Assembly: GCA_964576195.1 (NCBI GenBank) | Contig: CAZNUD010000002.1 | Location: 4,117-68,116, forward strand | DNA: 64,000 nt | Direction of reading: 5' to 3' | Origin: an uncultured Oscillospiraceae bacterium | GTDB lineage: Bacteria > Bacillota > Clostridia > Oscillospirales > Oscillospiraceae | Shown: positions 33,587 through 37,396 of the stretch, piece by piece | How positions within the stretch are numbered: position 1 is the stretch's first letter | How the letters are laid out: every line of letters starts with the position of its first letter | Translations under genes and position numbers: made by a program | Notes under the pieces: generated by a model | Seen by the model: only the letters and a program-made list of their open reading frames with translations | What the model was told of the DNA's origin: nothing | Database searches by the model: none

Positions 33587-33734
33587 AAAAGGGACCCCCT
33601 TTAGTTGCTTTCATGTTATTTCTTTTTAAGTATATTATACAGTAATTTAACAAAATTAAGCAAGTCATTTTTGTAAATAATTTATACATCCGTAAGAAGC
33701 TATACATAGCACAGGTTTTGTATCCCCTATAAAT

Positions 33735-33765
33735 AACGGCACCCGCTGTTTTTGCGGATGCCGTT
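33735..33765 (-). terminator. intrinsic terminator after the ATP-grasp/NTase gene
   Basis: 12-position stem AACGGCACCCGC / GCGGATGCCGTT (one mismatch). The minus-strand readout is followed by TTATTTAT. Confidence 0.55.
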
Positions 33766-33842
33766 TAGAAATCTAAGCCAGCGTTATCAAAGCCTGACTT
33801 TCAAATATATATACTTAAACAATTCTATTTTAATATCAACAT

Positions 33843-35402
33843 TTATGGTATTTCGGTGTCCTGCGGAGAACAAATCCGTAACGGCGTGGCAGGATCAACG
33901 GGCGATTTGATTTTAATCGCAAATGAGTTGCCCTCATTTATATCCTTATCCGTTACCATATGAATATCAAGGAGCTTATCAATCTTATATCCTGTTTGCA
34001 AATAGTTTACCTTTGCCAATGCACGGTTCCATCCATCCAGCCAGTTTTCTAATGCCGACTGCTGATAGCTGTTTTGCTCCTTGATATGAAGCAGCAGGTC
34101 AATATCGCTGCCCATACCAGCCTCGCCCGTATTGGTGCTTCCGAAAAGATAGATTTCCTTTACCCCAAAAGCCTCCATATCCAGCGAGTCTGCAATTTGC
34201 AGCGCCATAAAACGACGCCACTGCCAGTGGTTTTGTCTTTCATTATCCATCCAAAGAGGGGCCTGTGCGTCACTTTTTTCCAAATCCGCCCCGCTTGCCG
34301 ACTCCGGATCGGTTAGAAATGCTACTGCCTGCTCCAAATCGGAATTCATGTGTATTGAAAGGCTTTGTCCAGAATAGTCTGCCGGTATATCAATAACCTT
34401 GATAACATTGGAAAGTCGGGCAAAAGGTGGCAAGAATACACCAAGGATATTTTTGCTGTTTCGGAAAAAACCTTCTTTAAATATTATACCCTTATCATCG
34501 GAAAAAAGCGGTAAATATACTATCCCGGATTCCACAAGGTCCTGGAAAAATTGTGTCCCGAAAGAAGGTTCGGGCAAGTAGGCTTGCTTCTTCTTGGCAA
34601 ATTCAATTTCCACCGGTGAAAAAAGCAGAGGATAGTCATCCTTTACTCTGTCCACTGCTCTTGTCCCGAGCCCCATAACCATTTTAACAAGGCCGTCTTC
34701 CCGCTCAATGCGAGCCGACCAGCGCAAGAGATTATGGGAAAACGCAACACCGGAAAAAGCCAGCATATAATAATCCCCCACCCGGCTGCCAACAACCTCC
34801 TGAATTAGAATTCCCATTTGCTCGGCATAGTTTAGAAGCTCTTTTTCACGCCGGTACTCAATGGCATCGGGATTGTACATAGATGAATAAACCTCAAGGA
34901 TTGCATCAATCAGCGCTTCAAGCCGCTCTGCCCTTGTGCCTTGGTTTGGTAAAAACAGGCTTTTGTATTTTCCGCTAAACACTCTTCCCGGCTTGTCCTC
35001 CAGCAAGGATGAAGAACGGACAATCAAAGGAACATCCCCCATCTCCTCCAAAACAACATGAAGCATTTTTACTGTATGTGGGGGCAGCTTGGCGTTTTTA
35101 ATTTTGGATACAACGCTGTCGTAGGTTATTGGCAAATGCAGCAGTGAGTTGTATTTATAGGAATTGAATTCCTCTAAATTATTGTAATGCAGGAAGTCAA
35201 CCATCTGGTCTGTGGCCAAATACCACGTGCGGGGAGTTTTTATATCAAGGAGCAAGGGTTCATCCGCAGCCGCATGACGGAGAATCTGTTTTGCGATGAA
35301 AAGTCCGGCTCCTTTACCTCCTATATTTCCATTGCTGTTATCGGAACCAATAATTCTTTCCAATATCGATTCAAAATCGGAAATATTAAGATTGTCAAGC
35401 AC
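33843..35402 (-). CDS. PEP-synthase/PPDK-type ATP-grasp domain fused to a minimal nucleotidyltransferase domain
   Basis: GGKGAGL, RSSSLLEDKPGRVFSGKYKS, GILIQEVV and GLGTRAVD in the N-terminal half. LFGSTNTGEAGMGSDIDLLL (hG[GS]..DhD) in the C-terminal part. GTG start with no clear RBS. Confidence 0.65.
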   Translation of the reverse strand: MLDNLNISDFESILERIIGSDNSNGNIGGKGAGLFIAKQILRHAAADEPLLLDIKTPRTWYLATDQMVDFLHYNNLEEFNSYKYNSLLHLPITYDSVVSKIKNAKLPPHTVKMLHVVLEEMGDVPLIVRSSSLLEDKPGRVFSGKYKSLFLPNQGTRAERLEALIDAILEVYSSMYNPDAIEYRREKELLNYAEQMGILIQEVVGSRVGDYYMLAFSGVAFSHNLLRWSARIEREDGLVKMVMGLGTRAVDRVKDDYPLLFSPVEIEFAKKKQAYLPEPSFGTQFFQDLVESGIVYLPLFSDDKGIIFKEGFFRNSKNILGVFLPPFARLSNVIKVIDIPADYSGQSLSIHMNSDLEQAVAFLTDPESASGADLEKSDAQAPLWMDNERQNHWQWRRFMALQIADSLDMEAFGVKEIYLFGSTNTGEAGMGSDIDLLLHIKEQNSYQQSALENWLDGWNRALAKVNYLQTGYKIDKLLDIHMVTDKDINEGNSFAIKIKSPVDPATPLRICSPQDTEIP

Positions 35403-35636
35403 AAGGTTTATAACATTTTCGTCATTGGTAAGAAAACGGTGAGCAAGCTCGGCAATCAGCCATGTCTCTGTGGTGAAATATTAGAATTATCGCCTACAAG
35501 CTCGGTATATTTTCTCACAGCGTCTAATATTTCACTGACGCTTGCATCCTTGTTGTCAACCACCTTTACCAATGCAAGAACCCGCTGCTCCTTAAAGTTT
35601 GAATAATTGTATAATTGAAGTATTGGCCAGAATTTC

Positions 35637-35666
35637 AAAAAGAGATGTCTAATAGGCATCTCTTTT
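35637..35666 (-). terminator. intrinsic terminator of gdh
   Basis: Stem AGAGATG / CATCTCT with A/T extensions. The minus-strand readout is followed by TTTTTGAAA. Starts 15 nt after the gdh stop. Confidence 0.7.
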
Positions 35667-35680
35667 ATATTTATATTTGA

Positions 35681-36967
35681 TTATACCCAGCCGCGCAGCT
35701 TAACAGCTTCCGCTACCCGATTAATGGCAATGGTATATGCGGCGTCTCTCATATAGAGATCTTTTTCAACAGCAAGCTTATATACTGCGGCAAAGGCCTT
35801 GGTCATGCAATACTCTAACTTTTCAAAGACCTCCGCTATATCCCAGAAGTAGTTCATGCTGCACTGTACCTGCTCAAAATAACTGCAGGTTACACCGCCG
35901 GCATTACAAAGGAAGTCGGGCAGAAGTGTTATCCCCCGCTCACGAATCAGCGGATCGCAGTCGGGAGTGGTAGGTCCGTTCGCTGCCTCGCAGATAATTT
36001 TCACCTTTGAAGAGATCTCAGGAAGTACCGTCGGGGTAATTTGGTTTTCTAATGCCGCAGGAATGAGGATGTCCACATCCTGCTTAATCCAATCTTCGCC
36101 TGGAAGAACCTCATAACCTAATGCACTAGCCTTTTCCTTGTCAATGCTACCAAAGGAATCCTTAATAGCCACCAACTGTTCAATATCGCAGCCGCTTTCT
36201 TTCTTAAAAGTATATGACTTTGATTCGGCCTGATTCCAGCAGGATACAGCAATGACCTTGCCGCCCAGCTCAGTGTACATACGGGCAGCATACTCAGCCA
36301 CGTTACCAAAGCCTTGTATACTTGCTGCAGTGGATTCAACCGGAATGTTCATTTCGCGCAACAGGTTTTTAAGCACGTATATAACGCCGTAGCCTGTAGC
36401 TTCCCTGCGGCCCAGTGAGCCGCCCATGCCTACTGGTTTTCCCGTGATCATGCTGGGATAGCGGCCTCCGGAAATTGTTTCGTATTCGTCAAGCATCCAA
36501 AGCATATGCTGACCATTTGTCATAACGTCAGGCGCGGCTACGTCAAGGTTAGGTCCAAGCTGCGTATAAAGCTGGCGAATATATCCCCGGCAAAGTCTTT
36601 CCTGCTCGGATTTTGAAAGGTTATGAGGCTCGCAAATCACGCCGCCTTTTCCACCGCCCAGCGGAATGTCCACAACTGCACATTTCCATGTCATCCACAT
36701 GGAGAGGGCACGAACCGTATCGGCAGTTTCATGGGGATGAAAACGGATTCCACCCTTGGCCGGCCCCCTGGCGTCGTTGTGCCTGATACGAAAGGCCTTG
36801 AATACCTTGGTAGAGCCGTCATCCATTTTAACAGGGATATTAAATTGTGTTTCATACATGGGTTGACGAAGAAGCTCACAAGTGCCGCTGTCCAGTTCAA
36901 GGAGTGCAGCCACTTTATCAAATTGCTGTTGAGCACTTTCAAATGGGTTATAAACCGCTGTAGCCAT
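35681..36967 (-). CDS. gdh: NAD(P)-specific glutamate dehydrogenase
   Basis: 428 aa, KGGIRFHP, PLGGGKGG, GFGNVA dinucleotide fold. Confidence 0.92.
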   Translation of the reverse strand: MATAVYNPFESAQQQFDKVAALLELDSGTCELLRQPMYETQFNIPVKMDDGSTKVFKAFRIRHNDARGPAKGGIRFHPHETADTVRALSMWMTWKCAVVDIPLGGGKGGVICEPHNLSKSEQERLCRGYIRQLYTQLGPNLDVAAPDVMTNGQHMLWMLDEYETISGGRYPSMITGKPVGMGGSLGRREATGYGVIYVLKNLLREMNIPVESTAASIQGFGNVAEYAARMYTELGGKVIAVSCWNQAESKSYTFKKESGCDIEQLVAIKDSFGSIDKEKASALGYEVLPGEDWIKQDVDILIPAALENQITPTVLPEISSKVKIICEAANGPTTPDCDPLIRERGITLLPDFLCNAGGVTCSYFEQVQCSMNYFWDIAEVFEKLEYCMTKAFAAVYKLAVEKDLYMRDAAYTIAINRVAEAVKLRGWV

Positions 36968-37273
36968 GTTTTACCTCTCTTAATTAATTATATTTCAGAA
37001 AATAAAACGCCGAATAATCTATCTAATGATATTAGGCATAATAATACTATTATAAACCAATATTGTAAATAACACAACATCTTTATTTAGTGCATCACCT
37101 CATAACAGTGTTAAATACTGTTACACTGTATCATTGGGATATTACGTGCCGCGTAAGTTCAAATATGGGCCATTATCATAGTTTCGAGAACACCTGCTCC
37201 GTTTAAAGGCTTTAGGCTACATCGAAGAAACAGTCCTGGCATCAATTGCAGTCCAAACGCAATAGCACAAATA

Positions 37274-37318
37274 ACAGGCCAGCCGTGCCAAGCATTGAGC
37301 TTGAAACGGCTGGCCTGT
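37274..37318 (-). terminator. long interrupted hairpin downstream of rplS
   Basis: 12-bp perfect stem ACAGGCCAGCCG / CGGCTGGCCTGT enclosing an inner 5-bp stem CAAGC/GCTTG. Lies 79 nt past the rplS stop. T-rich on both sides. Confidence 0.55.
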
Positions 37319-37396
37319 TTTCGCGCCACTTGAAGCTGTTACACAAGTTCTTTATAGCTCCTGTGTTAGCCCCAAAAATGGCTTTTCTTTTTGAAG

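Follow-up and report, generated by a model that had tools for sequence, protein, structure and literature searches.

A decayed copy, most probably a pseudogene, of a glutamate dehydrogenase-linked ATP-grasp/nucleotidyltransferase gene in an uncultured Oscillospiraceae bacterium

The same type of ATP-grasp nucleotide-binding domain is found in phosphoenolpyruvate (PEP) synthase, PPDK, the rifampin phosphotransferase RPH-Lm (PDB 5HV1, 5HV3 and 5HV6) and HpeI (9GOJ). In PPDK, the Glu and the Gln of a DxEF...LLQCRPQ-type motif bind the Mg-nucleotide. Among nucleotidyltransferases (NTases), MntA/MNT is a type VII antitoxin, i.e. a small stand-alone NTase with a HEPN toxin as partner, while the NTase-fold enzyme GlnE uses adenylylation to switch an enzyme of nitrogen assimilation. 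VadK (Rv1127c) of Mycobacterium tuberculosis is a PPDK-derived regulatory histidine kinase which no longer carries out PEP/pyruvate chemistry and regulates metabolic enzymes (PMC13400623). The gene analyzed here carries both an ATP-grasp and an NTase part. It is a minus-strand open reading frame (ORF) of 519 codons (1,560 nucleotides) with a GTG start at positions 33843-35402 of the window, by which we mean the whole 64,000-nucleotide stretch of contig CAZNUD010000002.1 from an uncultured Oscillospiraceae bacterium. In the initial annotation, the gene was described as a monocistronic orphan fusion. With a probability of roughly 0.8, we instead consider it to be the decayed remnant, most probably a pseudogene, of a larger gene that is the partner of the glutamate dehydrogenase (GDH) gene gdh. 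We use "X" as a label for this partner gene and its protein family; the window copy is its remnant. A reading of the same stretch on the plus strand was rejected: its translation is full of stops, and the gene therefore lies on the minus strand.

Pfam assigns amino acids 26-263 of the translated product to PPDK_N (PF01326) with an E-value of 1.3e-40, which supports the PPDK-type domain proposed initially. The match covers profile positions 3-225 of 328 only, whereas it extends to positions 309-323 in intact relatives. The ATP-grasp domain is therefore truncated and not complete. The motifs GGKGAGL, RSSSLLED, FSGKYKS and QEVV are kept in the part that remains. Near the C-terminus, the NTP_transf_2, Polbeta and MTPAP palm models match amino acids 398-474 (E-values from 1.8e-8 to 6e-5), with PF01909 (NTP_transf_2) at amino acids 412-453 (1.8e-8) and PF18765 at 2e-6, in agreement with the Pol-beta-type NTase that had been predicted. 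The NTase motif GS...DIDLL (GS...DxD), seen as LFGSTNTGEAGMGSDIDLL, is intact. All motifs quoted in the initial annotation are present in the translation. The lack of phosphohistidine and PEP-binding domains was also borne out, since Pfam gave no match to the PEP-utilizers swivel phosphohistidine domain (PF00391, motif GG.TSH) in the window protein or in its full-length relatives, and none to the PEP/pyruvate TIM-barrel domain in the window protein.

Alignment with intact members of the family reveals what the window copy has lost. In a BLASTP comparison with the 899-amino-acid protein P0003, window amino acids 2-263 correspond to P0003 amino acids 157-418 with 71% identity, and window amino acids 266-509 correspond to P0003 amino acids 654-896 with 56% identity. 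The same two-block, collinear pattern is obtained with P0119, P0026, G042 and L111, and the identities of the two blocks are 83% and 71% to L111, 75% and 60% to G042, and 70% and 56% to P0003. Between the blocks, about 234 codons are missing in frame. This deletion takes the C-lobe of the ATP-grasp domain with its invariant Mg/ATP site PVDIEFA...YLLQCRPQ (the DxEF...LLQCRPQ motif), the "PGLRVN...YSPK" insert, and the first half of a family-specific domain including its invariant GPGRWGS loop, LMGPGRWGSRGDIKLGV. In the family alignment, the invariant positions D531/E533/F534, Q545/R547 and G628-S634 (P0076 numbering) all fall inside the deleted piece. The middle segment of the window protein, which had been called unrecognizable, is thus the C-terminal half of this family-specific domain, the first half of which is deleted. 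A MAFFT alignment suggested two internal deletions that leave a "PVEIEF" island. This was rejected in favor of a single deletion, since "VEIEFAKKK" and "ALIEIAEKR" form one contiguous alignment.

The 5' end of the gene is damaged as well. Upstream of the GTG codon, family-homologous codons continue in frame, but without any ATG, GTG or TTG. Further upstream, the homology goes on in a different reading frame, and a frameshift must therefore lie between the two segments; tblastn passes from frame -3 to frame -2 at this point, and the DNA alignment with G042 agrees. In this DNA alignment, homology to the X gene of G042 starts only at G042 codon ~224. The G042 stretch from the gdh stop to this codon, ~685 bp that hold the intergenic promoter, the ribosome-binding site (RBS), the start codon and ~223 codons including a GAF-like sensor region, is absent from the window. 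No Shine-Dalgarno sequence was found before the GTG at 35402; the nearby lepB has AAAGGGGG. The retained parts also carry unusual substitutions. The His of the family-invariant SFGTHFFQD loop, present in 43 of 43 other members, is replaced by Gln, and there are three more private substitutions at invariant columns (P214L, R240K and P301S). This makes four private changes over the 86 columns that are invariant otherwise, more than in any other of the 43 sequences (zero to three). Compared with intact X, the window copy thus shares the position after gdh, the NTase tail and the ATP-grasp N-lobe, but has lost the sensor and the helical linker, the catalytic lobe of the ATP-grasp domain, one half of the middle domain, the invariant His and its translation start. 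Decay in this strain was a prospect that the initial annotation had itself raised, and the lesions bear it out. The coordinates of all features are compiled in Table 1.

Table 1. Features of the remnant locus (window positions) and intact X genes that follow gdh in related genomes.
Feature	Position or genome	Strand	Basis or size
Remnant ORF, 519 codons, GTG start, no Shine-Dalgarno sequence	33843..35402	-	Two-block alignment to intact P0003, G042 and L111
N-terminal two thirds of PPDK_N ATP-grasp domain (amino acids 26-263)	34614..35327	-	PF01326; 83% identity to L111
C-terminal half of family-specific middle domain (amino acids 266-390)	34233..34607	-	Family alignment
C-terminal minimal Pol-beta-type NTase	33873..34220	-	PF01909, PF18765
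Junction of the ~234-codon in-frame internal deletion (...LLFSP/VE/IEFAKK...)	34608..34613	-	Two-block alignments
Codon 284, Gln replacing the family-invariant His of the SFGTHFFQD loop	34551..34553	-	His in 43/43 other members
26 further in-frame codons (YFTTETWLIAELAHRFLTNDENVINL), family-homologous, no ATG/GTG/TTG	35403..35480	-	
Frameshift site, upstream relic frame to main frame	35475..35494	-	tblastn frame -3 to -2; G042 DNA alignment
Out-of-frame helical-linker relic (KEQRVLALVKVVDNKDASVSEILDAVRKYTELV), stop codon at its end	35495..35593	-	70% identity to P0003 amino acids 91-123
gdh, intact glutamate dehydrogenase gene, 428 amino acids	35681..36967	-	Pfam ELFV_dehydrog_N, ELFV_dehydrog
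gdh intrinsic terminator hairpin, abuts the 5' deletion breakpoint	35638..35666	-	
Terminator-like 12-bp GC-rich hairpin (~33735-33765) with AUUUAU tail, 3' of the remnant	33729..33765	-	
Intact X after gdh	L111, uncultured Eubacteriales metagenome-assembled genome		1,036 amino acids
Intact X after gdh	L112, Clostridiales metagenome-assembled genome		1,049 amino acids
Intact X after gdh	G042, congener		1,034 amino acids
Intact X after gdh	G023, congener		1,039 amino acids

The window belongs to a metagenome-assembled genome in 86 contigs, and the lesions could in principle be assembly artifacts that conceal an intact gene. We regard this as very improbable. A stretch of 4,080 bases with all three lesions is 100% identical in Logan contigs from the runs SRR34068998, SRR13001971 and SRR13001973. 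Since the same DNA was assembled from three separate samples, the lesions are not a one-off assembly error. In addition, the orthologue has no long flanking repeats at the two large deletions that could have collapsed. A second copy of X was not found in the window genome, which is 96% complete. The genome does have a separate, apparently ordinary PPDK (G000:C41:7290-8303, in a 922-amino-acid open frame, PPDK_N positions 2-325), and the remnant is therefore not the PPDK of the cell.

The designation as an orphan did not survive database searches. In a collection of 5.8 billion proteins, the window protein has more than 6,400 significant homologues, nearly all of which combine PPDK_N and NTP_transf_2 in 700-906 amino acids (906 being the upper length filter of this search). 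In its best local alignment there, the window protein is aligned over only ~50% of its own length. Species-representative genomes contain at least 588 stretches that encode X. The groups bearing the gene include Zixibacteria, Ignavibacteria, Calditrichota, Planctomycetota, Acidobacteriota and Bacteroidota, and also Clostridia, Spirochaetes, Cloacimonadota, Chloroflexota and others. In full-length X, a GAF-like N-terminus (a weak Pfam match, E-value 0.018) is followed by a helical region, PPDK_N, the middle domain and the NTase. PPDK_N spans profile positions 3 to 309 or more of 328. In 78 of 80 distant loci, no break separates the N-terminal region from the remainder of the gene. Literature searches found no published characterization of this architecture. 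Neither NCBIfam nor PADLOC holds a specific model for X, and the label used in databases is "PEP/pyruvate-binding domain-containing protein".

The structure of a full-length member, P0076, was modeled with AlphaFold2 from an alignment of 40 sequences (predicted local distance difference test, pLDDT, 79.7; predicted template-modeling score, pTM, 0.71). The best Foldseek matches of the model in the PDB are the ATP-grasp domain of RPH-Lm (E-value 7e-15), HpeI (9GOJ) and PPDKs, and its C-terminus matches the minimal NTases 2rff and MNT chain 8xeh_E. Template-modeling (TM) scores of 0.70-0.74 were obtained against the isolated ATP domain of RPH-Lm (5HV6), which is also the only phmmer match in the PDB. 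X nevertheless differs from the PEP-utilizing dikinases in that it has neither the PF00391 swivel domain nor the PEP/pyruvate TIM barrel, and the window copy is also without the Mg/ATP lobe. The middle domain is an alpha/beta domain specific to the family, with invariant GPGRWGS and SFGTH loops. When the middle domain of P0076 (~210 amino acids, L028:6923-7555) was modeled alone, the prediction reached a pLDDT of 87 and a pTM of 0.87, but a Foldseek search of the PDB found no match to the fold (best E-value 0.26, TM-score at most 0.27). The idea that it is a diverged swivel phosphohistidine domain was rejected for this reason. The middle domain may represent a novel fold or a phospho-carrier domain of a new kind; the model of full-length P0076 places its invariant Gly-Thr-His loop in a low-confidence, probably flexible segment.

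X is tightly linked to gdh. The association was first noticed in four of four long contigs. Of the 66 loci with enough flanking DNA, which come from many phyla, 61 have a gdh gene on the same strand whose end is less than 1.5 kb upstream of X. The same arrangement is seen in the window, where gdh ends at 35681 and the relic starts at ~35593, so that X is directly downstream of gdh on the same strand. The window gdh is 90% identical to that of L111, 85% to that of G042, 84% to that of L112 and 70% to that of G023. The terminators that had been noted on both sides of the gene were both found, and the downstream hairpin has a folding energy of -30 kcal/mol over 79 nucleotides (z-score -4.9). The gene is all the same no free-standing monocistronic enzyme but a deletion-riddled copy of a family that is paired with the upstream gdh.

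This linkage also bears on the suggestion that the gene is a stand-alone, horizontally acquired enzyme that modifies small molecules, or an MNT-type antitoxin. The C-terminal domain does share the minimal Pol-beta NTase fold and the GS...DxD motif with the MNT/MntA proteins, and there are weak, sub-threshold matches to models of rifamycin phosphotransferase, MntA, ANT(9) and PDC-S09 NTase. These scores are, however, far below the curated cut-offs, as are all NCBIfam matches of the window protein (PEP synthase, PigC, rifamycin phosphotransferase, MntA and ANT(9) models): the dikinase models score 40 bits at best, where the cut-offs are 598-1,063, RIF_Ptrans_rph reaches 23.6 against 999, MntA 23 against 60 and ANT(9) 12 against 340. 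Defense-system libraries returned generic NTase matches only. The neighbors of the remnant are gdh and lepB, and there is no HEPN gene or other toxin partner as in the type VII systems. The impression that the gene is more AT-rich than its surroundings holds only marginally: its GC content is 44.6% compared to 47.7 +/- 2.3% for 48 window ORFs, and lepB (45.8%) and yraN (44.5%) have similar values, so that the composition is not anomalous. Together with the orthology to the gdh-linked full-length genes of ~1,035 amino acids, these results largely refute an independent resistance enzyme or antitoxin, and we give this interpretation hardly any credence.

We propose the following history. An ancestral X of ~1,035 amino acids would have been encoded directly after gdh, the pair lying between rplS and lepB in the window lineage. 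The sensor would have been lost in a 5' deletion together with the start codon, the RBS and the promoter; a frameshift would have disrupted the reading frame, and the ~234-codon deletion would have excised the Mg/ATP-binding lobe of the ATP-grasp domain along with half of the middle domain. Unlike its relatives, the product of such a gene would be unable to bind ATP and use it, and its translation would have no proper start. Intact X, in turn, may be an enzyme that uses ATP under the control of its sensor; on sensing a metabolite, it would regulate the product of the upstream gdh or modify it covalently. As candidate chemistries, the NTase could perform nucleotidylylation, or the ATP-grasp domain could transfer a phosphoryl group via the invariant His. 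That intact X regulates or modifies GDH is probable in view of the gene linkage, the conserved catalytic motifs and the analogy to GlnE, which acts on glutamine synthetase, and to VadK. No homology to GlnE was seen, though no search was aimed at it. In a 1996 study, the activity of GdhA in Bacteroides thetaiotaomicron reportedly depends on one or more trans-acting genes downstream of gdhA, which might belong to X; no named Bacteroides is among the best 80 X loci. VadK is a precedent by mechanistic analogy only, set beside X on the basis of its description. It lacks an NTase tail, and the partners reported for it are enzymes of the methylcitrate cycle, not GDH (PMC13400623).

Several observations weigh against decay of the window copy. 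The 1,560-nucleotide frame has remained open over all 519 codons, and the catalytic motif of the NTase as well as the ATP-grasp motifs of the N-lobe are intact. The ratio of nonsynonymous to synonymous substitution rates (dN/dS) of the remnant compared with L111 is 0.09 (dS ~1.2); the value for gdh is 0.047. Relative-rate tests of the window copy against L111 with three outgroups gave 32:23, 25:26 and 23:11, i.e. no consistent acceleration. Finally, a weak promoter-like sequence, TTGAAA-16-AATTAT, is found at 35638-35611 (-), directly after the gdh terminator and at the 5' breakpoint, and the gene has its own terminator. The promoter-like sequence matches nine of 12 consensus positions, and six such sites were found where 4.9 are expected in shuffled sequence.

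These points would also suit a shortened protein that is still made, from an internal GTG or a non-canonical start, and still functional, be it as a sensor-less NTase with a dead ATP-grasp domain that acts on or binds GDH, or as a dominant-negative or scaffold form. We consider such a protein unlikely. No Shine-Dalgarno sequence precedes the sole available start, Gln has replaced the invariant His, and two folded domains are cut by the internal deletion, the ATP-grasp domain in its C-lobe and the middle domain in its sheet. Among the top database matches, there is no other form of the family with ~520 amino acids. With a dS of this size, the low dN/dS mainly reflects the long functional history that the two genes have in common. 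The more specific version, in which the remnant is translated from an internal GTG and its intact NTase still acts on or binds the upstream-encoded GDH, is more doubtful still. If true, it would represent a naturally "minimized" GDH switch, and the NTase would stand out as the family's effector domain. In the absence of a start signal, a sensor and an ATP/Mg site, and with two domains cut, we infer that the remnant is most probably without function.

The dN/dS value and the relative rates taken by themselves fit very recent decay and continued constraint alike, and the four assemblies of the locus are identical in DNA, which leaves zero within-species polymorphism for a selection test. Given that there is no noticeable rise in rate against the intact sister gene and that the frame is still open, the lesions would be recent relative to the split between the window species and L111; continued constraint on the fragment is less likely.

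If the remnant is a pseudogene, the window copy amounts to a natural knockout of the partner of gdh. In three congeners, the 4-5 kb downstream of gdh contain nothing that resembles X, and among 24 congeners sampled one has a full-length X, two have matches of only 31-36% identity and the others have none. Since gdh is kept intact in the window (90% identity to the nearest relative) while X decays, and since congeners without X exist, X is dispensable in this genus. This argues for X as a regulator or modifier that can be dispensed with, and against an obligatory role in the maturation of GDH. The remnant represents a disrupted member of a family that is present in databases and uncharacterized; it should be annotated as a disrupted gene and not as a new type of enzyme architecture. 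The decayed allele of X is particular to this window, whereas the main object of interest is the parent family, which is widespread, tightly linked to gdh and without a published function.

The genomic surroundings of the pair vary. Upstream of gdh-X, there is a beta-galactosidase gene in L111 and a Glu/Gln-tRNA synthetase gene in G042. As the flanks differ among relatives, the two genes appear to travel together. The window has gdh and the remnant (33587-37396) as an insertion between rplS and lepB. In G042 (L113, G042:C8:88000-97000), rplS and lepB are adjacent and ~200 bp apart; the genes cmk2-degV-rplS-lepB-ylqF-rnhB-yraN-thrC are contiguous there, and the gdh-X pair is located at a distance of 166 kb. 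P0003 was also considered as an orthologous locus but was rejected, since its downstream gene is not lepB and its contig is too short to show the upstream side. Antisense to the 5' end of the remnant, there is a 139-amino-acid ORF (window 35187-35606, +), which has no Pfam match and is probably spurious.

Other loci of the family contain additional genes. In 55 of 84 loci, gdh and X are separated by a second PPDK_N paralogue, ~30% identical and with a middle domain of its own, and a metallophosphoesterase gene is found nearby in 37 of the 84; the clade of the window has the minimal arrangement of gdh and X only. On the Bacillota contig of P0026 (L027), there is a gdh on each side of X, together with genes for an AMP-binding ligase and a GGDEF protein, which may hint at more elaborate modules centered on GDH.

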